NCBI RefSeq assembly: GCF_036507355.1
Contig: NZ_AP027877.1
Reading direction: 5' to 3' (one strand)
DNA length: 64,000 bases
Source of the DNA: Escherichia coli
GTDB taxonomy: Bacteria > Pseudomonadota > Gammaproteobacteria > Enterobacterales > Enterobacteriaceae
The translations under genes and the position numbers were made by a program. A model generated the notes under the pieces. The model saw only the letters and a program-made list of their open reading frames with translations, ran no database searches and was not told the DNA's origin. Positions 1 through 20,806 of the stretch are shown piece after piece; within the stretch, counting starts at the first letter, position 1, and the number at the start of each line of letters is the position of its first letter.

Positions 1-2411
1 TTATCTTTCAGCATCAGCCCCCATTGGCACTGAGTCAGCGCCCGGAGAAATAGTCTGACTAAAATATCATCACTACGTTTGCTTCCGACTTTTAGTTTCA
101 TATCAGAAAACACCGTCCGGCAATAGAGAAAATCACACCAGTCATCCCAGTCAGCCAGGGTCTTCAGTGTATGCGTTTGCCGCCAGTCGTCGAAAAGGGA
201 GCGTTGCTGCAGAGCCTCTTCCATATTATCCCACGGGCGGGAAAACATCAGTAGATGCCCTTCATTCATGGCGGGCCGTACGGGCTGGCGTTTGAAATCG
301 AATTCCAGATTAAGACGGATATCCTGTTCCCGGGATACCAGATCGCTTTCCGAGAGCCACATCTCACGCGTTGATATCAACGTACTTCGGGATAACGTCT
401 GACCGGGTAAACGATTAAGGTAAAGATCTACCATATAGTCGTTATAGTCACTGCGTGGAATATCGGCAGGAGGTTTGACGCCAGCCCTGGCATGAACAAC
501 AGGTTTTCCCTGAATCGCTTTATAGGTTAACTGCCCCCGGGTTTTCATGGCGATAAGCTGGCTGACCTCATGCTTACATGTCAACATTGATGAACCCGGA
601 TCAACAATATCGCACAGCGACTGGAAGCGGGAAGACAGTGGACCGCTCATGTTTATCTTGTCAAGTGGGCAATTTGTCAAAAAACCATCGGTTGTGACGC
701 TGACAACCGATGAATCAGAAGGCAAAGCATTCATGAGTTCCCCGACAACGGCGCGGATAAATCCCGTCACATGCGCAGCAAAGAATGGCTGAGTAACCGA
801 TGATGGTGGGAGGGATCTGTTTAATCCACGGGCAGTATCAAAGGCGGTTTTGGCGCGAAGGCCCTGAGCAAGTTTGCCATAAAGCGAGTTGCCAATTTCT
901 TTCCAGAATTTCTCCTCCAAAGAACCCTTAATATGGCGATTACGGTTCTCACGGACCTGTTGAACAAAGGGAAGAAACACCGATGTTGATTCGCTGTTAT
1001 GTGGGGAGGTGTCACAGATCCAGGGGACGATGATCCCATTATGGATCGTCATCTCTGCCCCGAGCGACAGAGCAAGTTCGATTTCAGGTGCCGTTGCCCA
1101 TGATTCGCCACTTAATGGAAAGAATAACCCATATTGATCGGTCCGAACCGGCAGGCTGGGATAGGGAACTGATTCCGGGAACCGAAATGTGACAAGCGCA
1201 AATCCCATCACATGCCCACAGTAATCGTCCGGATTTTTACTGAGGCGGATGTTTCCGTAATCGGGTATGAGGATATCTAATAGCCCGGTGGTATACGCTC
1301 CAGCCAGATCGTAGTCATACCAGTGATCAGACGGTGTAACCCCCATCATAAAACACTCATTGCGTCCGCCGTGGTAACAGTTGATCGGGAACGTTTCAAA
1401 CAACTCTCTTGAAGGAACACTGGCGGGGTTTTTAATCGTCCGGAATGCCTGTTTCTCCGTGAGCCAGAGTTCACGGGTTTTAATGTGTGTCCCAAGGCAG
1501 ACTTCAGGAGACATATTGTTTTCTTTAAGTGTTTTGGTGAACCGTGAAACTGCCATCGCCCCGATGGTGGCGGGGACACGATCAATCATCAGCTCCCGGG
1601 CGCAAAAATTGCGAACCTGTAAAGCATAACGAACCGCAATCTCGGCATCCCGCAGAGCATAGGCTTCAAACCCTGCTCTGTCGCCCAGAAGATATTCACG
1701 CATATTGGTTATGGAATAAGGTGCAGGAATGGTGAGTTTGGGAAGACCCAGTAATTCACCACATTCAGCCAGACCCATACCCCCGGGAGTGATAAGCAGT
1801 GTATCGATGAAAGCTACGTTACTGCAACGCGGAGGGGAAGTTCGTTTGTCAAACATTATCTGTTCAGTCTTTACGCGACGTTCCTGCTGTTCATCAAAAT
1901 CGATACCGTAACGATTTTTGAAGCTGCTGACAGTACCGCGTATTCCTTTCAGAAGAATTTTGTAGTCTGACCAGAAATTGGCAAAGGAGGCGATATCCGC
2001 ACGAATGAAATGCGCATATATATTAATAATACCGGGCCATTTTGTAATCACACCCGTTTCAAGAAGCGGTGTAATCGTTTGACAGAGAAATTCCTTAAAA
2101 GACAGTCGGGATTTTTTCTGTGAGTCAGGTGGATAGATAATGTTCGATATACCAGTGTTATCGGGTAAGACGACATAACTCTGATATGACAGAATATCAT
2201 TCTGTTGTGTTTCAGGATTGAAAACATATTCGGTATCAAAACCGATATGGAGTGTCAGGTCACTTGAAATAACAGATACTTTTTTTGATGCAGGTGGTAT
2301 CACAGGATAATCATCAAGCGTTTTAGGTCTTTTAAGATTGAGCGCTGGCTCTGAAGTCACGGACTGATACCCCGAGGCGGCAGCGAGGATATCCTGCAAA
2401 TTATGGCTCAT
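1..2411 (-). CDS. Family-B DNA polymerase, piPolB-like (primer-independent PolB); C-terminal part truncated by the window edge
   Basis: Hand translation of the minus strand from ATG at 2411 (MSHNLQDIL...) is open to position 1, about 803 codons. Contains GFDTEYVF (ExoI-like), YDYDLAGAYTTG (motif A-like), KEIGNSLYGKLAQG (motif B), VVSVTTDGF (motif C-like) and AMKTRGQLTY (KTRG). Absent from the ORF track because it has no stop in the window. Confidence 0.8.
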   Translation of the reverse strand, partial: MSHNLQDILAAASGYQSVTSEPALNLKRPKTLDDYPVIPPASKKVSVISSDLTLHIGFDTEYVFNPETQQNDILSYQSYVVLPDNTGISNIIYPPDSQKKSRLSFKEFLCQTITPLLETGVITKWPGIINIYAHFIRADIASFANFWSDYKILLKGIRGTVSSFKNRYGIDFDEQQERRVKTEQIMFDKRTSPPRCSNVAFIDTLLITPGGMGLAECGELLGLPKLTIPAPYSITNMREYLLGDRAGFEAYALRDAEIAVRYALQVRNFCARELMIDRVPATIGAMAVSRFTKTLKENNMSPEVCLGTHIKTRELWLTEKQAFRTIKNPASVPSRELFETFPINCYHGGRNECFMMGVTPSDHWYDYDLAGAYTTGLLDILIPDYGNIRLSKNPDDYCGHVMGFALVTFRFPESVPYPSLPVRTDQYGLFFPLSGESWATAPEIELALSLGAEMTIHNGIIVPWICDTSPHNSESTSVFLPFVQQVRENRNRHIKGSLEEKFWKEIGNSLYGKLAQGLRAKTAFDTARGLNRSLPPSSVTQPFFAAHVTGFIRAVVGELMNALPSDSSVVSVTTDGFLTNCPLDKINMSGPLSSRFQSLCDIVDPGSSMLTCKHEVSQLIAMKTRGQLTYKAIQGKPVVHARAGVKPPADIPRSDYNDYMVDLYLNRLPGQTLSRSTLISTREMWLSESDLVSREQDIRLNLEFDFKRQPVRPAMNEGHLLMFSRPWDNMEEALQQRSLFDDWRQTHTLKTLADWDDWCDFLYCRTVFSDMKLKVGSKRSDDILVRLFLRALTQCQWGLMLKD

Positions 2412-7475: not shown

Positions 7476-7778
7476 CGTTGCCGATTATGGATGATGTCAG
7501 CTTCACACACCAGTACGGGTGATATATGGATCATCATTACCCCAACGGCAGTTTTACACCATGGCTAATATGGATGCTATCTTACTAAGATAATTGGTTT
7601 TTAGCGAGTGACGAGCCAGGTTGTGTCAGTCTGTCTCATGTCGATATTACGGGGATGATGCAAACCTGAATGCTGCGATATTGGCGTGTCAGGGGAGGCA
7701 TCTTACGGTATCATTTACCGCAATTTTTAAGATGCAAAGCCCTGCATCGCTAGCTTTTTCTTCAGACCAGGATGATTC

Positions 7779-9302
7779 ATGAACGACAAAATCAGTCAGG
7801 ACACGATCAACAAAGCCCTGTGGGCCGCGTGTGATACGTTCCGTGGCACCATCAGTGCTGATACCTATAAAGACTTTATCCTTACCATGCTGTTCCTCAA
7901 GTACATTTCAGATGTCTGGCAGGATCACTACGACGAATATAAAGTGCAATATGGCGATGCGCCGGAACTGATTGAAGCGATGATGGCGAACGAGCGCTTC
8001 GTGTTGCCGAAAAGCGCCAGTTTCTATGCGTTGTACGAGCGACGTCATGAGCCGGGCAACGGTGAGCGTATCGATCAGGCGCTGCATGCGATTGAAGAAG
8101 CCAACGGCACCAAACTGAAAGATGCCGGGAAAAGTGTCTTCCAGGATATTTCGTTTAACACTGACCGTCTGGGCGAAGAAAAACAGAAGAACACCATCCT
8201 GCGTCAGTTGCTGGAAGACTTTGCCGGTGAAGATCTTAACCTGAAGCCAAGCCGTGTCGGTACGCTGGACGTTATCGGTAATGCTTACGAATATCTGATC
8301 AAAAACTTTGCTGCCAGCGGTGGGCAGAAAGCCGGGGAATTCTATACCCCGCCGGAAGTTTCGGACCTGATTGCTGAACTGCTCGATCCGCAACCGGGTG
8401 ATACCATCTGCGATCCGGCCTGTGGTTCGGGTTCATTGTTGATGAAGTGTGGGCGTAAAATTGTCTCCGGGCATGATAGTCGTAACTATGCATTGTTCGG
8501 TCAGGAAGCGATCGGTTCTACGTGGTCGCTGGCGAAAATGAATATGTTCCTGCACGGGGAAGACAACCATAAAATCGAGTGGGGCGATACCATTCGTAAC
8601 CCGAAGCTGCTCGATAAAAATGGCGACCTGATGCTGTTTGATATCGTGACCGCTAACCCACCGTTCAGCCTCGATAAGTGGGGCCATGACGAGGCCGAGA
8701 ACGATAAGTTTGGCCGTTTTCGTCGCGGTGTACCGCCGAAGACTAAAGGAGATTACGCTTTTATCTCGCATATGATCGAAACCCTGAAACCGGGAACTGG
8801 CCGTATGGGCGTAGTTGTGCCACACGGTGTGCTTTTCCGTGGCTCCAGCGAAGGTAAAATTCGCCAGAAACTGATCGACGAAAATTTGCTGGATGCGGTA
8901 ATTGGTCTGCCGGAAAAACTGTTCTACGGTACGGGGATTCCGGCTGCGATTCTGATTTTTAAAAAGCAGAAAGTTGATGACAAGGTGCTGTTTATCGATG
9001 CCAGCCGTGAATTCAAGGCAGGTAAAAACCAGAACCAGCTTAGCGAAGAAAACATTAAGAAAATCGTCAAGACCTACCGTGATGGCGATAACGTCGAGAA
9101 ATACGCCTATCTTGCCAGCCTGAAGGAAATTCAGGACAACGACTATAATCTCAATATCCCGCGCTATGTCGATACCTTTGAAGAAGAGGATGAGATTGAC
9201 CTGCTGGCGGTGCGAGCAGAACGCGAGCAACTGAAGGCGGAATTGGCGAAGCTGGAAACGGAGATGGCTGGATATTTGAAGGAGTTGGGTTATGGCTCGT
9301 GA
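7779..9302 (+). CDS. hsdM: Type I restriction-modification system, DNA methyltransferase subunit M
   Basis: 507 aa; N6-adenine MTase motifs including DIVTANPPF and the AdoMet-binding region DPACGSGSLL. Confidence 0.95.
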   Translation: MNDKISQDTINKALWAACDTFRGTISADTYKDFILTMLFLKYISDVWQDHYDEYKVQYGDAPELIEAMMANERFVLPKSASFYALYERRHEPGNGERIDQALHAIEEANGTKLKDAGKSVFQDISFNTDRLGEEKQKNTILRQLLEDFAGEDLNLKPSRVGTLDVIGNAYEYLIKNFAASGGQKAGEFYTPPEVSDLIAELLDPQPGDTICDPACGSGSLLMKCGRKIVSGHDSRNYALFGQEAIGSTWSLAKMNMFLHGEDNHKIEWGDTIRNPKLLDKNGDLMLFDIVTANPPFSLDKWGHDEAENDKFGRFRRGVPPKTKGDYAFISHMIETLKPGTGRMGVVVPHGVLFRGSSEGKIRQKLIDENLLDAVIGLPEKLFYGTGIPAAILIFKKQKVDDKVLFIDASREFKAGKNQNQLSEENIKKIVKTYRDGDNVEKYAYLASLKEIQDNDYNLNIPRYVDTFEEEDEIDLLAVRAEREQLKAELAKLETEMAGYLKELGYGS

Positions 9303-10566
9303 TTCGCTTTACCCAGTGAGCGTTAAAGCTGGAAAACCGATCCTTGGAATGCTACCTACAGGATGGCAAAAGTTATCATTAGAAAAGTGCTTAAATATAG
9401 AGGCAAGAAAGGCATATATACAAGATAATCAAGAGTATGACTTAGTTACAGTAAAGCGCTCCAGAGGTGGCGTAATAAGACGTGAGCATCTTAAAGGAAA
9501 AGATATCTCCGTAAAAAGTCAATTCTATATTAAAGAAGGCGACTTTCTCATATCAAAACGACAAATTGTGCACGGTGCTTGCGGTCTTGTACCTAAAGAA
9601 CTTTCTGGCTCAATTGTATCGAATGAATATTGTGTGCTTACAGGGAAGTCCGGTTTTTATCTTCCTTATATGGAATTTCTATCGGAGTCTCTATATTTCC
9701 AGCAAACCTGCTTCCACTCTAGCATTGGTGTGCACATAGAGAAAATGATTTTTAAGTTAGATAGTTGGTTTAAGTGGCCATTTAATATCCCCCCACTGTC
9801 TGAACAAAAGAGAATCGTTAAAATCCTGTCAACCTGGGATAAGGCGATTTCGGTGACGGAAAAGCTTCTCACCAACAGTCAGCAGCAGAAAAAAGCCCTG
9901 ATGCAGCAATTGCTTACCGGGAAAAAACGCTTGCTGGATGAGAGGGGGGTGAGGTTTAGTGGGGAGTGGAAGAGAGTAAAACTGGGTGCGATAGCCGATA
10001 TGAACAGTGGAGGTACTCCGAAATCAACGGTTGAAGAGTATTATGGCGGGAATATCCCATGGGTATCTATTTCTGATATGACATCTAATGGAAAGTGGAT
10101 TGCTACAACTGAAAAATATCTGACTGAATTAGGATTGAACAGTTCATCCGCAAGAATATATCCAAAAAACTCGGTTCTTTATGCTATGTATGCTTCTATA
10201 GGTGAATGCAGCATTGCTGCTGTAAATTTAACATCTTCGCAGGCAATCTTGGGTATTAGACCAAAAGATTGTTTAAATTATGAGTTTTTATATTTCTATC
10301 TTACATCATTAAAAGAAAAAATAAAACTGCAAGGCCAGCAAGGTACACAGTCCAACCTAAACGCCGGAATGGTTAAAGAGTTTGAACTAGACTTACCCAG
10401 TATAAGAGAACAACAAAAAATCGCCGCCGTCCTGTCCGTCGCCGATGCCGAAATCTCCACGCTGGAGAAAAAACTCGCCTGCCTGAGAGATGAGAAAAAA
10501 GCCCTGATGCAACAGCTACTGACTGGCAAACGTCGTGTTAAGGTCGATGAGGCGGTTGCCGAATGA
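9292..10566 (+). CDS. hsdS: Type I restriction-modification system, specificity subunit S
   Basis: 424 aa; two AT-rich target-recognition domains separated by the repeated conserved segment KKALMQQLLTGKKRL / KKALMQQLLTGKRRV; start overlaps the hsdM stop by 11 nt. Confidence 0.95.
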   Translation: MARDSLYPVSVKAGKPILGMLPTGWQKLSLEKCLNIEARKAYIQDNQEYDLVTVKRSRGGVIRREHLKGKDISVKSQFYIKEGDFLISKRQIVHGACGLVPKELSGSIVSNEYCVLTGKSGFYLPYMEFLSESLYFQQTCFHSSIGVHIEKMIFKLDSWFKWPFNIPPLSEQKRIVKILSTWDKAISVTEKLLTNSQQQKKALMQQLLTGKKRLLDERGVRFSGEWKRVKLGAIADMNSGGTPKSTVEEYYGGNIPWVSISDMTSNGKWIATTEKYLTELGLNSSSARIYPKNSVLYAMYASIGECSIAAVNLTSSQAILGIRPKDCLNYEFLYFYLTSLKEKIKLQGQQGTQSNLNAGMVKEFELDLPSIREQQKIAAVLSVADAEISTLEKKLACLRDEKKALMQQLLTGKRRVKVDEAVAE

Positions 10567-11246
10567 AACTGACGAAAAGCGGTCCACTGACTGACCGGGA
10601 AATCGACTGGCTGGAAGAAATATTAATGAAGTATGGAATGGATGATTCTGTACTCTGTTTCTCTGAGCTGGATGGATTGCTGACGGCGATTTTATCAGGT
10701 CCAAATATGGTTTCACCCAATATCTGGCTGAGTGCTATTTGGGGAGGAGGCGATTATCATCCGAAATGGTCATCTGAGAGAGAGATGGAGCGTTTTGTCA
10801 GTCTGTGTTTTCAGCATATGAACGATATCGCTGGTTGCCTTTATGACGCCCCTGAACTGTTTGAGCCGATTTTCAATGAGCGTGAGGTAAAGGGGGAAAA
10901 ATATACCATTGTGGAAGAGTGGTGTTTTGGTTATATGAAAGGAAAGTCACTGGATGACTGGTCTGGTCTTCCCGGTGAGTTACGGCCTTCTCTGGAAGTG
11001 ATCGCTCTTCATGGCGTGGAGAAGAATTTTCCTGTACTTGAGAAAATGACCAGAGAGCAGTTTGAGAAAAGTATTTCCCTTATTAAGCCTGCTGCACTGG
11101 CACTTTATCAGTACTGGTTGTCAGTGAGAATGTCAGAGGCATCATCCCGGCCTGTTCCAGTGAAGGGGGCAGAAAACATGCCCGGGCGAAATGACCCGTG
11201 TCCGTGTGGCAGCGGTAAAAAATTTAAGAAGTGCTGTCTGCATTGA
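10563..11246 (+). CDS. YecA/UPF0149-family protein with C-terminal SEC-C metal-binding motif, embedded between hsdS and hsdR
   Basis: 227 aa; C-terminal [20 protein letters not shown]; colinear with chromosomal YecA (20141-20806) along its whole length; ATGA overlap with the hsdS stop. Confidence 0.85.
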   Translation: MKLTKSGPLTDREIDWLEEILMKYGMDDSVLCFSELDGLLTAILSGPNMVSPNIWLSAIWGGGDYHPKWSSEREMERFVSLCFQHMNDIAGCLYDAPELFEPIFNEREVKGEKYTIVEEWCFGYMKGKSLDDWSGLPGELRPSLEVIALHGVEKNFPVLEKMTREQFEKSISLIKPAALALYQYWLSVRMSEASSRPVPVKGAENMPGRNDPCPCGSGKKFKKCCLH

Positions 11247-11295
11247 TGAATCTTCATGTGACCAGTAGCGAGTAGCGCCAGAAAGAAAAGGATTA

Positions 11296-14200
11296 ATGAT
11301 GAACCAGACGTACACGCCTAAATTCCAGGAAGAATACAGCGCCAAAATTCCGGCACTGACGTTACTGACCAGCCTCGGCTGGACGTTTTTATCTCCGAAA
11401 CAGATTATGGATTACCGGGGCTATAAACAGGATGAGGTGGTGCTGCGTCCGGTTCTGCGTGAAGAGCTGTCGAAGCGTTCCTTTATGGCGGGTGGCAAAA
11501 CCTGCCAGTTATCGGAAAAAGCACTGGATAACCTGATATCACAGGTCTGTTCTCCGGCGCTGAATGAAGGGCTGCTCAAAGCCAATGAACGGATGTATAA
11601 CCATCTGCTCTACGGTATCGCCGTCACGGAGTTTGTCGATGGCAAGAAGGTGAACCCCACCATTGCGCTGATCGACTGGGAACATCCGGAAAGTAACCAG
11701 TTCCATTTTACCGAAGAATTTACGGTATTGCGGTCAGGCGGTGTCGAAACCCGCAGGCCGGATATTGTGTGTTTTGTGAATGGTATCCCGCTGGCCGTCA
11801 TTGAAGCGAAAAGCCCGGCGGGTCACGGCAAGAAAGGGCCAACCATTGACGAAGGGATATCCCAGAGTATCCGCAATCAGCTCAACGACGAAATCCCGCA
11901 GCTGTTTGCTTACAGCCAGATATTACTGTCGATTAACGGGCATGACGGGCGCTACGGTACCTGTCATACACCAATGAAATTCTGGGCGGCATGGCGCGAA
12001 GAAGATATTACTTACGCGCAGATGTATGCGCTGCGCAACCATAAGTTATCGACTGAACAAATTCATGCGTTGTTTGATGATCGTCCTTCAGTCGATCTCA
12101 AATGGTATCAACAGTTAATCGATGGGGGGGAACTGGCAGTCAGCGGGCAGGATAAGCTGCTCATCAGTCTGCTTTCACCGGAACGTCTGCTGGAGATGAC
12201 CCGCTTCTTCACCCTGTTTGATAAAAAAACCGGAAAAATTGTTGCCCGCTATCAGCAGGTGTTCGGTATTAAAAGACTGCTGGAACGCATCAGTACCCGC
12301 AGACCAGACGGGGGCAGGGAAGGTGGGGTGATCTGGCATACCACGGGGTCAGGTAAATCTTACACCATGGTATTCCTCAGCAAGGCGCTGATTCTTCATG
12401 ACAGCCTGAAGCAGTGTCGTATTGTGGTGGTGACGGACCGCGTGGACCTTGAAGGGCAGCTCAGCGGCACTTTTGTCTCTGGTGGCGAACTGGCAGGGAA
12501 GGATGATAAGGCCAAAGCGATGGCAACCTCAGGTCAGAAGCTGGCACAGCAGATTGGCTCTGGTAAAGAACGTATAATCTTTACCCTTATCCAGAAATTT
12601 AACTCAGCGACAAAATTGCCTGAATGCGTCAACACCAGCCCCGACATCATCGTTCTGATTGATGAAGGACACCGTAGCCAGGGTGGTGAGAACCATGTGC
12701 GAATGAAACTGGCACTGCCGAACGCCGCCTTTGTGGCATTTACTGGTACGCCATTGCTAAAAGAAGATAAGACCACCAATAAATTCGGGCCGATTGTCCA
12801 CGCTTATACCATGCAGCGAGCGGTAGAAGATAAAGCCGTTACACCTTTGCTGTATGAAGAACGTATTCCCGACCTTGAGGTTAACGATCGGGCAATAGAT
12901 GCCTGGTTTGATCGTATTACCGATGGGTTAAGCGAAGCGCAAAAAGCCGACCTTAAGCGTAAATATGCCCGTAAAGGTGAGGTTTATAGTGCAGATGATC
13001 GCATCCGTCTGATCGCACTCGATATCGCCACGCACTTCTCGAAGAATATTGATGAGGGGCTGAAAGGCCAGCTTGCCTGCGACAGCAAGATTTCCGCCAT
13101 CAAATATAAAAAGTATCTTGATGAAGCCGGGTTGTTTGAGTCAGCAGTAGTTATCAGCCCGCCGGATACCCGGGAAGGGAATACCGAAGTGGATGAAAGC
13201 AAACTGCCGGAAGTGACGAAATGGTGGAAGGATAATGTCGGCACGCAGGATGAGTCTGTGTATACCCGTAATATCATCAGTCGTTTCGATACCGATGAGA
13301 AGCTCAAATTGCTGATAGTCGTTGATAAACTGCTCACCGGGTTTGATGAGCCGAAGAATACCGTGCTGTATATCGACAAGCCGCTTAAGTCCCACAACCT
13401 TATCCAGGCGATTGCGCGGGTGAACCGACTGCATCCACTAAAAAAGTTCGGTCTGCTGATTGATTATCGCGGTATTCTGGCTGAGCTGGACACGACTATC
13501 GGCAAATATCAGGACCTCGCCTCCCGAACTCAGGGCGGATACGATATCAAAGATATTGACGGGCTGTACAGCGCCATGAGCTCTGAATACAAGCGCCTGC
13601 CGCATCTGTATAACCAGCTGTGGGCCATATTTGCCGGTGTTAAAAACAAAAATGATACTGAGCAGTTACGTGCGGTACTGGTGCCTAAAATGGAAGAACG
13701 TGACGGAGAGATGGTCGATATCCATCAGAAAACCCGTGATGATTTCTTCGAGGCGTTAACGGCCTTTGCCGGATGCCTGAAAGTGGCACTGCAGTCCGCT
13801 ACCTTCTTCACCGACAAGAGCTTTACGGAACAAGACCGAAATCTCTATAAAGAAACCGTAAAACAGATGTCCAGCCTGCGCCAGTGGGCGATGCAGGTAA
13901 GTGGAGAGCAGGTCAATTATGACGACTACGCTGAGCAGGTGAAAAAACTGCTGGATAAGCATGTCACCGGCGTTGAGGTTCGTGAACCGGATGGCGTGTA
14001 TGAAGTCGGTAAAATGGGCAAGAGCGAAAAGCCCGAAGAGTGGGACAACAATAAAACCCGCAATGAAACCGACATCATTAAAACCCGCGTGACGAAGATG
14101 ATTGAGCAGGAATTGCGTGATGACCCGTATGCTCAGGAGGCATTTTCAAAACTCCTGCGTATGGCTATCGAAGAGGCTGAAAAACTGTTTGACCATCCGC

Positions 14201-14583
14201 TGAAACAGTACCTTTTGTTCCGTGAATTTGAAGAACAGGTTGAAGCCCGTAAGCTCAGCGATATCCCGGATGCACTGGCGGTAAACAAGCATGCTCAGGC
14301 GTATTACGGTGTATTTAAAAAAGAGCTACCTGAGGTTTTTGCGGTAAACGACGTTCAGGTGCAGGATAAGTGGACCAAGCTGGCTTTTGAAGTGGACAAC
14401 ATTATCGTCAAAGCGGTGGCAGAAAACTCCCTGAACCCCCAGGACATTGAGAAAGTCGTTAAGACAAGTCTGCTACCACTGCTGTTTACGGCCTGCCGGG
14501 AAATTGGTGCCGGAATGAATCAGGTTAACCGTATTGTGGAAACCATCATCCAGATACTGCGCGTTGGTTTGATGAAATCATGA
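11296..14583 (+). CDS. hsdR: Type I restriction enzyme, restriction (helicase-nuclease) subunit R
   Basis: 1095 aa; Walker A TGSGKSYTM and DEAH-box LIDEGHRSQ; typical HsdR N-terminus. Confidence 0.95.
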   Translation: MMNQTYTPKFQEEYSAKIPALTLLTSLGWTFLSPKQIMDYRGYKQDEVVLRPVLREELSKRSFMAGGKTCQLSEKALDNLISQVCSPALNEGLLKANERMYNHLLYGIAVTEFVDGKKVNPTIALIDWEHPESNQFHFTEEFTVLRSGGVETRRPDIVCFVNGIPLAVIEAKSPAGHGKKGPTIDEGISQSIRNQLNDEIPQLFAYSQILLSINGHDGRYGTCHTPMKFWAAWREEDITYAQMYALRNHKLSTEQIHALFDDRPSVDLKWYQQLIDGGELAVSGQDKLLISLLSPERLLEMTRFFTLFDKKTGKIVARYQQVFGIKRLLERISTRRPDGGREGGVIWHTTGSGKSYTMVFLSKALILHDSLKQCRIVVVTDRVDLEGQLSGTFVSGGELAGKDDKAKAMATSGQKLAQQIGSGKERIIFTLIQKFNSATKLPECVNTSPDIIVLIDEGHRSQGGENHVRMKLALPNAAFVAFTGTPLLKEDKTTNKFGPIVHAYTMQRAVEDKAVTPLLYEERIPDLEVNDRAIDAWFDRITDGLSEAQKADLKRKYARKGEVYSADDRIRLIALDIATHFSKNIDEGLKGQLACDSKISAIKYKKYLDEAGLFESAVVISPPDTREGNTEVDESKLPEVTKWWKDNVGTQDESVYTRNIISRFDTDEKLKLLIVVDKLLTGFDEPKNTVLYIDKPLKSHNLIQAIARVNRLHPLKKFGLLIDYRGILAELDTTIGKYQDLASRTQGGYDIKDIDGLYSAMSSEYKRLPHLYNQLWAIFAGVKNKNDTEQLRAVLVPKMEERDGEMVDIHQKTRDDFFEALTAFAGCLKVALQSATFFTDKSFTEQDRNLYKETVKQMSSLRQWAMQVSGEQVNYDDYAEQVKKLLDKHVTGVEVREPDGVYEVGKMGKSEKPEEWDNNKTRNETDIIKTRVTKMIEQELRDDPYAQEAFSKLLRMAIEEAEKLFDHPLKQYLLFREFEEQVEARKLSDIPDALAVNKHAQAYYGVFKKELPEVFAVNDVQVQDKWTKLAFEVDNIIVKAVAENSLNPQDIEKVVKTSLLPLLFTACREIGAGMNQVNRIVETIIQILRVGLMKS

Positions 14584-15335
14584 GTGAAAAAGAATCGCCA
14601 TCAATGAAAGCGTTACGCATTGTCTATGGTGATGATGTCATCACCGTACAGTGTGTTCCGCGTCAGGTCGTAAAGGGCAGGGTGCTCATCAAGGTTTATC
14701 CGGACTGCCGGGTTGTGGCCTCTGTACCGCCTGAAACACCGGAGCACGAGGTATTGTCTGCGCTGAAAAAAAGAGGGCGCTGGATATACCAGCAACTGCG
14801 TGATTTCAGGGAGCAACAGACACACATTGTTCCGCGTCAGTATGTCAGCGGAGAAAGCCATTATTATCTCGGTAAGCAATATCAGTTGAAAGTGACAGAA
14901 GACGCTACTGTGCCGCAACGAGTGAAAATGTTGCGTGGGCGTCTGGAAGTGACTGTCAGACACAAATCGGCAGAAAAGATTAAAGCCTTGCTGGCTGAAT
15001 GGTATCGGGAACGTGCCAGAGATGTTTTTCAGCGCAGGCTTGATTTACTGATTCCGCAGACCCTTTGGGTCAGTGAGCGTCCTCCGATACGTCTGCGGGC
15101 GATGCAAACGCAATGGGGCAACTGTTCAGCAAAAGGCTGTCTGACCCTGAATCCATGGCTGGTTAAGGCATCCTCAGAATGTATCGATTATGTTTTGCTA
15201 CATGAGTTATGCCATGTGGCTGAGCACAACCACAGCGAGGAGTTTTACCGTCTGATGGGGCAGGTTATGCCTGGGTGGGAAAAGGTCAAGAAACGACTGG
15301 ATGGGATGGCTGGGATGTTGTTGGCTGATATGTAA
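14580..15335 (+). CDS. DUF45 / YgjP-like (M48-type) zinc metallopeptidase, translationally coupled to hsdR
   Basis: 251 aa; HEXXH motif HELCHVAEHNH near the C-terminus; ATGA overlap with the hsdR stop. Confidence 0.8.
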   Translation: MSEKESPSMKALRIVYGDDVITVQCVPRQVVKGRVLIKVYPDCRVVASVPPETPEHEVLSALKKRGRWIYQQLRDFREQQTHIVPRQYVSGESHYYLGKQYQLKVTEDATVPQRVKMLRGRLEVTVRHKSAEKIKALLAEWYRERARDVFQRRLDLLIPQTLWVSERPPIRLRAMQTQWGNCSAKGCLTLNPWLVKASSECIDYVLLHELCHVAEHNHSEEFYRLMGQVMPGWEKVKKRLDGMAGMLLADM

Positions 15336-15393
15336 CTTATCAATATGAGTTCTTAAGGGTTTGGTCAGTCTCGTTAATGTAGGGAGTATAATA

Positions 15394-17232
15394 ATGAGTA
15401 AGTTAGATAATAAAATTGAAGCACGCCATCGTAATTTGTTTGATGTTCTAAATGCGCAAAAATATACCGTTGATTACTTTCAGCGCGAGTATAGCTGGGG
15501 TGAGAAACATATTGAAGAGTTGGTTACAGACTTAACATCTGCGTTTCTCAATGAATACACCGTCGGTGATTCTCGGGAGCAGGGTGAAAACTACAATAAT
15601 TATTACTTAGGACCATTTGTTGTGAGTAGTAAAGATGGGAAACGGAGTATTATTGATGGTCAGCAACGACTGACTTCATTAACTTTATTTCTAATTTACC
15701 TCCATAACCTTCAGAAAGAACTTAAATATGAAGAGAAAATAGAATCAATGATTTTCTCCGAGTTACGTGGCAGCAAATCATTCAATATAGTAGTTGAAGA
15801 CAGAATACCTTGCATGGAAGCATTGTTTAATTTTGGTAGCTATAGTTTAGTTGATGGGGATGATGAGTCAACCCATAACATGGTGGAGAGATATCAGAAT
15901 ATCACAGATGCTTTTCCTGATGAATTAAAAGGTCAGGCTTTTCCTTTTTTTATCGACTGGCTTAAGTATAACGTTATTATGGTTGAGATAGTTGCCTATT
16001 CAGATGAAAACGCATATACCATCTTTGAGACTATGAATGACCGAGGATTAAATCTTACTCCGTCCGAAATGCTTAAAGGTTTTTTACTTTCACGCTTTCA
16101 TCAGGGAGATAAACGCCAAAAGGTAAATGAACTCTGGAAAAAAGCGATGATGGATTTAAAAAACTATGATAAAGATGAAGACCAACGTTTTTTCCAGTCA
16201 TGGTTGCGTGCTCAATATGCTGATACAATACGCCCGGGTAAAGCTGGTTCAAAAAATGAAGACTTTGAAAAAATAGGTACGCGTTTTCATAGCTGGGTTA
16301 GAGATAATCTTCAGGCGGTGGGATTGGACCCAGATAATGGTGAGACATTCGAACGATTTATACAAAAAAACTTTTTGTTTTATTTGAATGCCTATACACA
16401 AATACTGAATGCTGAGAGAGCATTAACGCACCAACTGGAATATGTATTTTATATCCACCATTGGGGTATTGCACCTACTTTAAGTTTCCCTTTGATGTTG
16501 GCTCCATTAAATGTAGGTGACAGTCCTGATGCTGTGATAGCCAAAATAAACCTGGTGGCGCGCTATATTGAAACATTTGTTGTTCGTCGTTCTGTTAATT
16601 TCCGAAAATTCTCTGCCAGTTCTATTCGTTACACAATGTACAGTCTTGTTAAAGAAATTCGTGGTAAAAGTATTGAAGAATTAAAAGATTTGTTATCTAA
16701 GAAGTTATCCGAAATGCCAGATACTTTTGCAGGAATGGAAGAGTTTCGTCTCCATGGTCAAAACTATCGTTTTGTGAAGTTTTTGCTTTCTCGTATAACT
16801 GCGTGGGTTGAGCAGCAAGCCGGAATGAGTACAACCTTCATTACATATTATCAGCCAGAACACGGTAAGCCATTTGAAGTCGAGCATATTTGGGCCGATA
16901 AATATGAACGTTACTCTGATGAGTTTGAACAAGAGCACGAATTTAACAATTACAGAAATCGCTTAGGTGATTTGGTTTTATTACCTAGAGGCTCAAACCA
17001 GTCATATGGTGATTTGTGTTACGATCAAAAGCAACCTCATTACATCAAAGAGAATCTCCTGGCTAAATCGTTATGCCCATTGGCATATATGAATAACCCT
17101 AATTTCAATCAGTTGAGAAATGTATTCGGATTGCCTTTCAAACCACATGATTCATTTAAAAAACAAGATGTCGATGAACGACAGTCTTTGTATAAAATAA
17201 TTTGTGAGAATATTTGGGACCATAATTTATAG
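15394..17232 (+). CDS. DUF262 (ParB-like, DGQQR) / DUF1524 (His-Me finger) protein, GmrSD-like type IV restriction candidate
   Basis: Motif IIDGQQRLTSL in the N-terminal half; C-terminal EVEHIWADKY...NRLGDLVLLPRGSNQS. I place the start at ATG 15394 with SD agggag 7 nt upstream; the track uses TTG at 15361. Confidence 0.75.
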   Translation: MSKLDNKIEARHRNLFDVLNAQKYTVDYFQREYSWGEKHIEELVTDLTSAFLNEYTVGDSREQGENYNNYYLGPFVVSSKDGKRSIIDGQQRLTSLTLFLIYLHNLQKELKYEEKIESMIFSELRGSKSFNIVVEDRIPCMEALFNFGSYSLVDGDDESTHNMVERYQNITDAFPDELKGQAFPFFIDWLKYNVIMVEIVAYSDENAYTIFETMNDRGLNLTPSEMLKGFLLSRFHQGDKRQKVNELWKKAMMDLKNYDKDEDQRFFQSWLRAQYADTIRPGKAGSKNEDFEKIGTRFHSWVRDNLQAVGLDPDNGETFERFIQKNFLFYLNAYTQILNAERALTHQLEYVFYIHHWGIAPTLSFPLMLAPLNVGDSPDAVIAKINLVARYIETFVVRRSVNFRKFSASSIRYTMYSLVKEIRGKSIEELKDLLSKKLSEMPDTFAGMEEFRLHGQNYRFVKFLLSRITAWVEQQAGMSTTFITYYQPEHGKPFEVEHIWADKYERYSDEFEQEHEFNNYRNRLGDLVLLPRGSNQSYGDLCYDQKQPHYIKENLLAKSLCPLAYMNNPNFNQLRNVFGLPFKPHDSFKKQDVDERQSLYKIICENIWDHNL

Positions 17233-17290
17233 CAAAGTTAGGGTGTTAATTAATCTGTAATGGCATCATGATTTTTAAAAGGAGGTTGAA

Positions 17291-18418
17291 TTGCGTTCTG
17301 AAACGTTTTTTGTCAAATTTATTGAACAACTGAAAGGTATTTCGGTTGAGGATGATGTTGAATTCAATTTTTTTGAATTGGGTGGTTCCGGATATCTCGA
17401 AAATCCAACTACGGATTTGATGGCTTTGTTTATGGGAGCCCAGAAAATGGTGCCGCCATGGTTGCTCAAAGCATTGCTATGTTGCCTGGATGATTCCCTC
17501 GATGTTGATGAAATTGATTTCACTTCTCTGGAGCTAATGAGAGAGGCCCGAACAGAAGATGGGAAATATATTGATATTCTTATCAGACATGATGAATTCA
17601 TTATAGGTATTGAGCATAAAGTTCTGGCTGATACATATAATCCTTTTCCCAGCTATGTAAGTCTCATTGATAGTTACGGCGGCAACAATCAAAAACTATT
17701 TCGCTGTATATTAAAGCCTGACGGTAACAGCGCTAAAGGCGTAGACGGTTGGCAACTGATCAATTATTCACTGCTGCTGGAAACCGCCATTCGACGTCTG
17801 GGGTTGGAGATGATGAATCAAGAGTTCAGCAAGTGGACTGTTTTTTATCAGGAGTTTTTAAGTCATCTTAAAAAATTGAGTGAGGTTAGTATGGATAAGG
17901 TATCTGATAAAAATGTGGAGTTTGTCACTGAAAATTTCTCAGCTTTGATAAAATCGGTTCAACTGCTGGAAATGTACCAAAATGCTATCACCGAGGAAGC
18001 TAAATCGGTTGTCTCAGAGGTATTGCCTGATATTCATATTGCAACAGGTATTAATAACTGGAAGGGTTACTATAAAGCAATTCATCTGATGCCGGGATGC
18101 TGGGGGCAAGGTAAAACAGGAATTACGTTAGTTTATCGCCCTTCAGAGGATGGACGAGATGAAGCTGAGTTCTACGTATATGGATGGATACATTCAGATG
18201 ATTACCCTGAAGTTAATGCACTAAAAGAAGAAATAAGAGTTGCTTTAAGTGCTGGAGATTTCATTCCAACAGCTAGCCCTGAGGACTATGAAGTATCAAT
18301 TACTGGGAAGGGGAAAGTGCTTGAACTGAGTTTTTGGGGGAATACGAGAAGCAAAAAAGATGCACTGGTTCTTCTTAAGGATATGACTAAGTGGATGGAC
18401 TCAAAAATAAGAACATAA
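17291..18418 (+). CDS. Hypothetical protein, 375 aa, with PD-(D/E)XK-like motif
   Basis: TTG start preceded by strong SD aaaaggagg; YIDILIRHDEFIIGIEHKV resembles a D...E-x-K nuclease core; remainder has no recognisable domain. Confidence 0.5.
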   Translation: MRSETFFVKFIEQLKGISVEDDVEFNFFELGGSGYLENPTTDLMALFMGAQKMVPPWLLKALLCCLDDSLDVDEIDFTSLELMREARTEDGKYIDILIRHDEFIIGIEHKVLADTYNPFPSYVSLIDSYGGNNQKLFRCILKPDGNSAKGVDGWQLINYSLLLETAIRRLGLEMMNQEFSKWTVFYQEFLSHLKKLSEVSMDKVSDKNVEFVTENFSALIKSVQLLEMYQNAITEEAKSVVSEVLPDIHIATGINNWKGYYKAIHLMPGCWGQGKTGITLVYRPSEDGRDEAEFYVYGWIHSDDYPEVNALKEEIRVALSAGDFIPTASPEDYEVSITGKGKVLELSFWGNTRSKKDALVLLKDMTKWMDSKIRT

Positions 18419-18522
18419 AGTAATATGACTGAGTGATGACGATCTTTTTTAAATTGTGGATTATTAGGCTGGTAATTGAAGCGCCGAATAGACAGATATT
18501 GGAATAAAAGGAGAATATTCAA

Positions 18523-19704
18523 ATGATTTATCAGTGTGATACTTGCAGTAGAACGACTTTTGAGGTTAATTGTCCCTGGTGTAGTGGAGTTTCGCCTGTA
18601 AAAACGTCTGCATGGGGTTCAGCATCATCGACCGCACAAGCAATAGGCATACAACGTATGACACCATTGAATCCATCGTTTTATCCCGAATTTCAGTATC
18701 GTTCAAAGGGTGTTCTAAAAGATCTATTTGGGAAAAAGAAAGAGCAAACTCAGCTTAATCAATTGCTTGAAAATGTTCTCAAAAAATACTCCAGTTTAAA
18801 AGATCCATATTTTACTAACTTCATTTACACTTCCAGATTCTCACATAATAATAAATCGGAAGCAGATTACTCAACAGATAATGGTACATACTCCGAATTA
18901 CAACTTTTCCGTGAGGTGTTGGTCAGAAAAGGGTTCAATGAGCTTGAGCAGTTACCTGAGCTATTAGATAAATTACTCCTTACCACGTCATTTAACGCTC
19001 TTTATTATGGTTTCGCTAAGGAAGTTAAACGGCATATTAAATCCACACTTACTGAATCCTTGAAGTCATGGATTGAGGAAGCGGGTACCACTTTTAGGGC
19101 AGATCTTTCATTGTTTCTATTCTATATATGGAGCAATAAAATAGAGTTCTCATCAGTAGAGTTCAATGAAAAAGCGGAGGCTACGCCTGGTGTTCCTTTA
19201 GTTTCATTTGATGAAGTTAAAAAATACTTAGCTGTGTGCGAACATATTTATTTTGATATTCTGGTTGATAGATTAGCTACACGGCTCGAACATTTTAACC
19301 CTAACAAATTCGTCACCATGTATTTAGTTGATGCAATGGACGGTTTCCAGTTTGAAGATTTCCTTGTGGAAGTATTCCAGACTATGGGCTATGACGTCAA
19401 AGAAACCAAGAGAACGCAAGATCAGGGGGCAGATCTCTTCGTCACTCGATTTGGTAAGGATATGGTTATTCAGGCGAAAAATTATTCTGGTTCTGTAGGT
19501 AACTCGGCGGTGCAGCAGGTGATCTCTGCTAAAACATTCTATGGTTGTGATGAGGCGATGGTTGTGACTAATTCCTACTTCACACGCTCTGCCAAAGAAT
19601 TAGCTGAATCAGCCTTGGTACGTTTGATCGACAGGGATGAACTGCAAAAGTATCTGGATGATTACAATCAGAAGATAATTGAAGATTTCCAGTCAAACTC
19701 GTAA
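18523..19704 (+). CDS. Restriction endonuclease-like protein: N-terminal Cys4 zinc-ribbon plus C-terminal Mrr catalytic domain
   Basis: N-terminus CDTCSRTTFEVNCPWC; C-terminus GADLFVT...VIQAKNYSGSV...VVTNSYFTRSAKELA...LIDRDEL, colinear with the E. coli Mrr catalytic region as I recall it (D...Q-x-K). Confidence 0.75.
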   Translation: MIYQCDTCSRTTFEVNCPWCSGVSPVKTSAWGSASSTAQAIGIQRMTPLNPSFYPEFQYRSKGVLKDLFGKKKEQTQLNQLLENVLKKYSSLKDPYFTNFIYTSRFSHNNKSEADYSTDNGTYSELQLFREVLVRKGFNELEQLPELLDKLLLTTSFNALYYGFAKEVKRHIKSTLTESLKSWIEEAGTTFRADLSLFLFYIWSNKIEFSSVEFNEKAEATPGVPLVSFDEVKKYLAVCEHIYFDILVDRLATRLEHFNPNKFVTMYLVDAMDGFQFEDFLVEVFQTMGYDVKETKRTQDQGADLFVTRFGKDMVIQAKNYSGSVGNSAVQQVISAKTFYGCDEAMVVTNSYFTRSAKELAESALVRLIDRDELQKYLDDYNQKIIEDFQSNS

Positions 19705-20140: not shown

Positions 20141-20806
20141 ATGAAAACGGGACCGTTAAACGAAAGTGAGTTGGAATGGCTGGACGATATTCTGACCAAA
20201 TACAACACTGACCACGCCATCCTTGATGTGGCGGAGCTGGACGGTTTATTGACGGCGGTGTTGAGTTCTCCGCAAGAGATTGAACCGGCACAGTGGCTGG
20301 TTGCCGTGTGGGGTGGGGCTGACTATGTGCCGCGCTGGGCGTCAGAGAAAGAGATGACGCGCTTTATGAACCTGGCTTTTCAACATATGGCCGATACCGC
20401 AGAGCGTCTGAACGAATTCCCGGAGCAGTTTGAGCCGTTATTCGGCTTGCGAGAAGTTGATGGCAGCGAGCTGACGATTGTTGAGGAGTGGTGCTTTGGC
20501 TATATGCGGGGCGTGGCACTTTCTGACTGGTCAACATTGCCCGATTCGTTAAAACCAGCGCTGGAGGCGATAGCGCTGCACGGTACTGAGGAAAACTTCG
20601 AGCGGGTAGAGAAGATGTCGCCAGAAGCGTTTGAAGAGAGCGTAGATGCCATTCGACTGGCGGCGCTTGATCTACATGCGTACTGGATGGCGCATCCGCA
20701 GGAAAAAGCTGTTCAGCAACCGATCATAGCAGAAGAGAAACCGGGGCGTAACGATCCTTGCCCGTGCGGTAGTGGTAAGAAATTTAAGCAGTGCTGCCTG
20801 CATTAA
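20141..20806 (+). CDS. yecA: UPF0149-family protein YecA with SEC-C motif (chromosomal copy)
   Basis: 221 aa; ends [20 protein letters not shown]; position between tRNA-Leu and tyrP as in K-12. Confidence 0.9.

Follow-up and report, generated by a model that had tools for sequence, protein, structure and literature searches.

What does a close paralog of a housekeeping chaperone do between the specificity and restriction genes of a Type I restriction-modification (R-M) operon? The question is raised by a 64,000-nt stretch of Escherichia coli DNA (contig NZ_AP027877.1, hereafter the window), in which a gene for a protein of the YecA (AscA) family, referred to here as yecA_e, lies between hsdS and hsdR. 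As a near relative of a chaperone that harbors no enzymatic domain, its product is an unusual occupant of a defence island. The analysis indicates that yecA_e is very probably an optional, long-resident accessory gene in the cargo slot of one mobile Enterobacterales Type I R-M family, and that it encodes a YecA/AscA paralog already catalogued as the defence candidate PDC-S12. All positions are those of the window, and gene calls are taken from its six-frame list of open reading frames (ORFs).

Identity and setting of the embedded protein

The yecA_e product matches NF007704, the NCBIfam equivalog model of YecA, over its full length (357.4 bits, cut-off 149). It comprises an N-terminal UPF0149 domain (Pfam PF03695, 2e-30, residues 15-185) and a C-terminal SEC-C metal-binding domain with the pattern CPC...CC/CH (PF02810, 4.4e-10, residues 209-225); the two account for the whole protein, and no catalytic, toxic or effector domain was recognised with Pfam, NCBIfam or PADLOC. 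The AlphaFold2 model (pLDDT 91) adopts the UPF0149 fold, and the best PDB folds found with it belong to two UPF0149 proteins, 4GYT (probability 1.00) and 1IZM, which is the Haemophilus influenzae YgfB (0.98). Over 18 residues the metal-binding domain is identical to the YchJ C-terminal peptide (PDB 9L6B), and it also matches peptides of the SecA metal-binding domain in the PDB. The cysteines of this domain are invariant on alignment. When 17 embedded and 97 native YecA sequences were aligned, the residue was the same at 77 positions conserved to at least 90% in both clades and differed at one such position. PADLOC models for the CBASS-associated proteins 'E2' and 'E1-E2' match the same SEC-C region (residues 204-226, window 11174-11240, E 1e-5 to 2e-3), so that SecA-like metal-binding knuckles are also found in other defence-associated proteins.

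The window also carries a native yecA beside tyrP, and this gene, not yecA_e, is the ortholog of chromosomal yecA. The embedded protein belongs to a separate clade, whose members are 73-100% identical to one another and then separated by a gap from all native Enterobacterales YecA proteins, which reach at most 60% (5.8 billion proteins searched). Capture of yecA_e from the neighboring native gene is ruled out by the same figures, the two proteins of the window being 57% identical over their full length. Native AscA is reported to bind unfolded proteins and, via its metal-binding domain, SecB and ribosomes; it is described as a holdase that may feed clients to proteolysis (preprint 10.1101/2020.07.21.215244). 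With this protein yecA_e shares the two-domain architecture, the invariant residues and a near-identical SecA-like metal-binding domain, but it differs in being carried by a mobile element within an hsd operon, in its less acidic character (net charge -7, against -22 for native YecA) and in a ratio of nonsynonymous to synonymous divergence (dN/dS) about three times higher. On these comparisons yecA_e is a full-length YecA/AscA paralog, diverged yet structurally complete, in which YecA chemistry is kept; SecB and ribosome binding, as well as holdase activity, would be expected from the conservation of its sequence.

The initial annotation described a translationally coupled operon of five genes, namely hsdM, hsdS, a yecA-like gene, hsdR and an M48-type peptidase gene. 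The coordinates of all five (Table 1) are confirmed, all on the plus strand, and the overlaps that it listed are exact in the sequence: 11 nt between hsdM and hsdS (ATG at 9292, TGA at 9300-9302), and ATGA both at the hsdS stop and yecA_e start (10563-10566) and at the hsdR stop and peptidase start (14580-14583). Coupling stands for four of the five genes and does not extend to the yecA_e/hsdR junction, where a 49-nt spacer provides hsdR with a ribosome-binding site of its own; the spacer is identical in other loci of the same allele type that have yecA_e alone (L038-L040, L044). The same five-gene set is annotated in E. coli genomes by the NCBI Prokaryotic Genome Annotation Pipeline (PGAP), which starts hsdR one codon later and names the peptidase 'M48 family' or 'SprT family'. 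HsdM, HsdS and HsdR are thus encoded together, HsdM and HsdR scoring above the curated NCBIfam cut-offs and HsdS having weak support. HsdR is distant from that of EcoR124I (type IC), which it matches in the motor domain only (E 4e-32).

Scanning for consensus promoters and terminators between the genes of the operon, the yecA_e/hsdR junction included, gave no signal beyond the shuffled background, and an internal promoter or terminator dividing yecA_e from hsdR thus found no support. The intergenic region 5' of hsdM gave no promoter evidence either, with 12 sigma-70-like matches against 11.1 expected by shuffling; one of the matches upstream of hsdM is a weak one at 7686-7714 (9/12). Expression of yecA_e appears to come from the hsd operon, via the start that overlaps the hsdS stop. 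As a separate observation, a terminator-like hairpin with a T-run (CCAGCCTCGGCTGG ACGTTTTTAT) lies at 11369-11392 on the plus strand, about 70 nt into hsdR, and terminator-like sites are about twice as numerous as expected by shuffling over the region, chiefly on the minus strand.

The arrangement had been regarded as possibly undescribed, and in this respect the initial annotation has to be amended, as it is already catalogued both in PADLOC and as pipolin cargo. The yecA_e product matches the PADLOC-DB v2 model PDLC04917, 'PDC-S12' (2.4e-99, 329.7 bits, residues 5-227 against model positions 2-218 of 218), and it belongs to the same protein family, with no difference in kind. PDC systems are candidates that were found lying within BREX, DISARM or Type I R-M systems, proposed on that ground ('guilt-by-embedding') and added to PADLOC, according to the available part of Payne, Hughes, Fineran & Jackson (2024, 10.1101/2024.01.29.577857), which reports neither a phenotype nor a mechanism for PDC-S12 and does not connect it with YecA/AscA. 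In the window, as in the intact operons inspected, PDC-S12 is embedded in Type I R-M between hsdS and hsdR, and in decayed loci yecA_e still lies 3' of an hsdS remnant. 'Type 1 RM, PDC-S12' has been reported as frequent, recently exchanged cargo of Enterobacterales pipolins (Mateo-Caceres et al. 2024, Nucleic Acids Research, PMC11551731). In the literature searched, the term 'PDC-S12' appears in this pipolin paper and two Klebsiella genome reports only; YecA or UPF0149 is mentioned together with Type I restriction, hsdR or phage defence only incidentally, and nothing useful emerged there on DUF45, YgjP or COG1451 in connection with Type I systems. The window is therefore one more instance of PDC-S12, and no new kind of system.

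A cargo slot with an optional occupant

Whether a YecA-like gene lies between hsdS and hsdR only sporadically was left by the initial annotation to a survey, and the co-location is not sporadic. Among 5426 complete E. coli genomes, yecA_e is found in 419 (about 8%), including enterotoxigenic E. coli (ETEC) H10407, whose copy is 99.7% identical, and O145 lineages. hsdR together with the peptidase gene is present in 540 of these genomes, and yecA_e fills about 92% of the slots that can be scored. In 199 genomes yecA_e is followed by a 594-aa cold-shock-domain gene (CSD594), about 220 have yecA_e without it, and in 35 the slot is empty, hsdS directly abutting hsdR. Outside the chromosome, about 346 plasmids, mostly conjugative IncF plasmids of Klebsiella, carry a copy at 80% identity or more, and each of the plasmid matches listed with product names overlaps a gene annotated as subunit S. 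In all the contexts inspected, copies of the embedded clade immediately follow hsdS or what remains of it, and none was seen outside the lineage of this slot. The overlap of the hsdS stop with the yecA start is kept in 15 of 15 loci examined, including alleles down to 74% protein identity and with synonymous divergence (dS) above 1, so that more than chance lies behind the arrangement. Pipolins and IncF plasmids alike carry the gene along with its hsd genes.

A survey of the slot, in which GTDB species representatives were scanned with HsdR, gave 24 loci (L011-L034). HsdM is 80-99% identical among them and HsdR 67-99%; HsdS is highly variable between loci (30-70%), which fits target-recognition domains. 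In 22 of these loci a YgjP-like peptidase gene overlaps hsdR or follows it at a distance of no more than about 90 nt; of the other two, L034 has a truncated gene and L030 breaks off within hsdR. It is therefore this peptidase, rather than YecA, that constantly accompanies the hsd genes of this Type I family. In the Enterobacterales loci, yecA_e is intact in six species, in five of them with CSD594 as well. It is frameshifted in Citrobacter braakii, reduced to 5' and 3' stubs in Rosenbergiella, and truncated ahead of the metal-binding domain in one lineage. Intact hsdM-hsdS-hsdR-peptidase operons with an empty slot and a 21-nt hsdS/hsdR spacer are found in E. coli and four other genera, and in two contexts an intact yecA_e has outlasted decayed hsd genes.

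Farther away, in Ketobacter, Alcanivorax, Oceanisphaera, Oleiphilaceae, Legionella and related loci (HsdR 67-77%), the slot lacks yecA. In these Gammaproteobacteria it holds a CBASS cyclase with a phospholipase, SIR2-HerA, a PtuA-like ATPase, AbiD or Schlafen/AlbA-like proteins; in Idiomarina it is empty in one locus (L027) and contains two unannotated ORFs in another (L033). These variable contents define the slot as a hotspot for defence cargo, of which yecA_e is the usual Enterobacterales occupant. The other cargo, CSD594 included, shares with yecA_e its position in orthologous hsd operons (HsdR 67-99%) but consists of known or enzyme-like defence modules that are also found elsewhere in genomes. 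An obligate two-gene system of yecA_e and CSD594 is ruled out, as each occurs without the other: yecA_e is alone in the roughly 220 E. coli genomes mentioned above, and CSD594 is found without it in Erwinia, in an integrative and conjugative element of Vibrio and in a Pseudomonas island. CSD594 itself gave no match in PHROGs, NCBIfam or a PDB sequence search.

The initial annotation had likened the slot to the one that carries PrrC, the latent anticodon nuclease of the EcoprrI locus, and the finding of varied accessory cargo between hsdS and hsdR throughout this hsd family bears out that comparison. In the available part of the survey by Payne et al., PrrC is essentially only found embedded, as is yecA_e in the copies sampled here; unlike PrrC, yecA_e has no ABC-ATPase or anticodon-nuclease domain. 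The further claim that the yecA-like gene is an integral part of the hsd operon stands in one sense only. The gene is co-oriented with the hsd genes, is joined to hsdS through its start and travels with them, but it is not required, as the empty, frameshifted, stub and truncated slots and the intact orphan copies left after hsd decay make clear. Hence, yecA_e is optional cargo, dispensable for and separable from the hsd genes, and not a core subunit.

Optional as it is, the gene has been held in the slot for a long time. In pairwise comparisons between alleles, dN/dS is 0.08-0.13 for yecA_e, against 0.02-0.03 for hsdM, 0.03-0.06 for hsdR, 0.04-0.08 for the peptidase gene and 0.03-0.05 for native yecA. 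The gene is under purifying selection, and its protein evolves about three times faster than those of hsdM, hsdR, the peptidase gene and native yecA. The dS of yecA_e between alleles rises to 0.8-2 and is comparable to that of hsdR in co-diverged pairs. Between the window and locus L005, dS is 1.2 for hsdM, 2.1 for yecA_e, 2.5 for hsdR and 3.0 for the peptidase gene; since the values are comparable across the operon, yecA_e was in the slot before these operon lineages split. Against locus L009 yecA_e has a dS of 0.84 beside an hsdR dS of only 0.15, a mismatch which implies cassette exchange of yecA_e together with hsdS. Through recombination, near-identical hsdR genes adjoin differing yecA alleles.

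Candidate functions

The function of the gene can be approached more tentatively. It is possible that yecA_e assists defence without enzymatic activity, by binding and sequestering a protein of the invader, conceivably an anti-restriction factor. It is expected to act by binding a protein client because it has no catalytic or toxic domain and has kept all the residues invariant in YecA. In the proposed mechanism, the UPF0149 domain would hold the client, while the SecA-like metal-binding domain would anchor yecA_e at the ribosome or at SecB; the client would come from the invader and be produced at an early stage of infection or conjugation, an acidic DNA-mimic anti-restriction protein being one example, and yecA_e would back up the R-M system rather than being part of the enzyme. 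The kinds of genes that otherwise occupy the slot, the faster evolution of yecA_e, its shift in charge and the survival of orphan copies may be read, with the same reserve, as pointing in this direction. Other members of the family offer possible precedents. YgfB of Pseudomonas aeruginosa sequesters the antiterminator AlpA (PMC9998450), and the YgfB/YecA-like MtvS of Francisella binds the beta-prime subunit of RNA polymerase and is needed for a type V-A CRISPR-Cas locus to be up-regulated (10.1101/2024.09.12.612765); by analogy with these two and with AscA, yecA_e may also function through protein binding. YgfB and MtvS have the UPF0149 fold of yecA_e and both act by binding proteins, MtvS in the regulation of a defence locus, but they are single-domain proteins without a metal-binding domain, encoded by chromosomal housekeeping genes, and about 17% identical to yecA_e in structural alignment.

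Several considerations weigh against sequestration of an invader protein. No effector domain is recognisable in yecA_e, a literature search for yecA_e or PDC-S12 gave no reported phenotype or experimental test, and, from the available part of its source, PDC-S12 is a candidate picked by location alone. The identity of the proposed client is purely conjectural. The confinement of the clade to the lineage of this slot fits dependence on R-M, or simple linkage, equally well as autonomous defence, and the charge shift and raised dN/dS could be equally explained by relaxed constraint. Moreover, the repeated loss of the gene from intact operons shows that its benefit is conditional at best.

An alternative, considered rather doubtful, is that yecA_e serves the Type I enzyme itself as a dedicated chaperone or adaptor. 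HsdS is insoluble without HsdM in the systems studied (EcoKI, EcoR124I). The embedded protein could hold nascent HsdS, or HsdR at the ribosome, aiding the assembly of new recombinant HsdS variants; it could also, once the pipolin or plasmid has entered a naive host whose methylation is still under way, delay restriction or pass HsdR on to the YgjP-like peptidase. Paralogy to a ribosome-associated holdase that possibly feeds proteolysis would suit such a role, as would the start overlapping the hsdS stop in every allele, the association of yecA alleles with hsdS and not with hsdR in recombinants, the restriction of the clade to this operon, and the carriage of the operon on elements that often enter unmodified hosts. 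However, the same hsd family works, or at least stays intact, without yecA_e, which has been lost from intact operons by frameshift, deletion and truncation; the peptidase is present whether or not yecA is; intact orphan copies persist where hsdM, hsdS and hsdR are gone; and the slot is otherwise filled by autonomous defence systems. Another alternative makes yecA_e a passenger, a chaperone gene captured in a recombination-prone slot, with no role in defence or R-M and a generic benefit in proteostasis or secretion, or none at all. The gene is dispensable and has been lost repeatedly, a protein that keeps all YecA features may simply duplicate AscA activity, its dN/dS is above that of its neighbors, and distant YecA-family genes also ride on Tn3-family transposons of Xanthomonas and Pseudomonas plasmids, away from any R-M gene. 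This alternative is nevertheless unlikely, given that purifying selection has held over dS above 1 in several alleles, that the occupancy of scorable E. coli slots by yecA_e is so high and that the coupled start is conserved.

It is quite improbable that yecA_e is a regulator at the level of transcription, binding an antiterminator or RNA polymerase and thereby tuning the hsd operon or the late genes of an invader. The blocking of AlpA by YgfB, the need for MtvS at RNA polymerase in CRISPR-Cas up-regulation and the fold that the AlphaFold2 model shares with YgfB (1IZM) are in its favor, but yecA_e is far nearer to YecA/AscA, in identity (57% against 17% for YgfB in structural alignment) and in its metal-binding domain; for YecA proteins there is no evidence of DNA or polymerase binding, and the yecA_e/hsdR junction has no promoter or terminator signal over background. 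A bolder formulation makes yecA_e a new non-enzymatic companion of R-M, either a re-purposed holdase, docking at the ribosome and SecB, that has diverged to capture invader proteins such as acidic DNA-mimic anti-restriction factors during their synthesis, or a protein released upon Type I inhibition, in the manner of PrrC, to jam docking sites at the ribosome or SecB; this is given a low probability.

If either form of this bolder reading were true, defence would be exerted by chaperone-type sequestration instead of by a nuclease or toxin, and the first physiological handle on the role of the YecA family would be at hand. Were a role of the gene demonstrated, sequestration or chaperoning would count among the accessory functions of R-M, and light would be shed on the poorly understood YecA/YgfB family. 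As yecA_e is common in E. coli and occurs on conjugative Klebsiella plasmids by the several hundred, an influence of the gene on restriction, on the uptake of plasmids or on phage sensitivity would bear on phage therapy and plasmid spread. The interest of the gene is moderate: it is widespread in clinical plasmids and tractable strains exist, and it is an already catalogued candidate.

The surrounding pipolin and distant relatives

The window is 99.2% identical to E. coli RM14721 over 19.7 kb, and the 7.8-kb operon, used as a query, is found in E. coli at 98.7% identity over its full length. The presence of a primer-independent family-B DNA polymerase (piPolB) identifies the island as a pipolin inserted at the tRNA-Leu site, with pgsA and yecA on either side, a location described for these elements (PMC11551731). 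The closeness of native yecA to yecA_e appears to reflect this attachment site, not a local duplication, because the two are only 57% identical.

Table 1. Coordinates of the operon, of its neighbors in the window and of distant YecA-family genes on plasmids
Feature	Position	Strand	Remarks
piPolB	3-2411	-	803/867 aa, 100% identical to RM14721 copy
AT-rich ORF, 376 aa	4707-5837	-	about 35% GC; between pipolin recombinase and hsdM
AT-rich ORF, 411 aa	6240-7475	-	about 35% GC; between pipolin recombinase and hsdM
Presumed operon promoter region	7569-7778	+	intergenic, 5' of hsdM; role from position alone
hsdM, Type I methyltransferase subunit, 507 aa	7779-9302	+	TIGR00497, 283 bits, cut-off 243
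hsdS, specificity subunit, 424 aa	9292-10566	+	weak NCBIfam HsdS match; Pfam Methylase_S in related-locus homologues
yecA_e, embedded YecA/AscA paralog, 227 aa	10563-11246	+	NF007704; UPF0149 + SEC-C; PDLC04917
Spacer before hsdR, 49 nt	11247-11295	+	AAAGGA ribosome-binding site; sole non-overlapping junction
hsdR, restriction/translocase subunit, 1095 aa	11296-14583	+	TIGR00348, 461 bits
YgjP-like zinc metallopeptidase, 251 aa	14580-15335	+	Pfam PF01863, 3.6e-58; weaker WLM and SprT-like matches
DUF262/GmrSD-like gene	15361-17232	+	PADLOC HEC-06/Orf5
PD-(D/E)XK nuclease	17291-18418	+	PADLOC, candidate PDC-S26
Mrr-like restriction endonuclease	18523-19704	+	PADLOC
Native yecA	20141-20806	+	right island edge beside tyrP, 9 kb from yecA_e
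Distant YecA-family plasmid gene	L041:7001-7699
Distant YecA-family plasmid gene	L042:6974-7687
Distant YecA-family plasmid gene	L043:6977-7681

The two AT-rich ORFs upstream of the operon have no PADLOC match and are labelled hypothetical proteins in other pipolins. The three genes listed 3' of the operon, at 15361-19704, are likewise of defence type; in this region RM14721 has an extra SIR2 gene that is absent from the window.

A phage-encoded YecA was considered and rejected. The six phage records concerned (H131-H136; PHROG 24700) hold a native-type gene (54-57%) at the end of the record, at positions 4-691, which probably results from a prophage boundary overshooting into the host gene at the tRNA-Leu site. 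Recruitment of YecA-like genes by mobile elements seems to be recurrent. On plasmids of Xanthomonas citri and Pseudomonas amygdali, genes for distant members of the YecA family (26-29% identity) immediately follow Tn3-family transposase genes, and on a Paracoccus plasmid a UPF0149 gene is overlapped by a WGR-domain gene.

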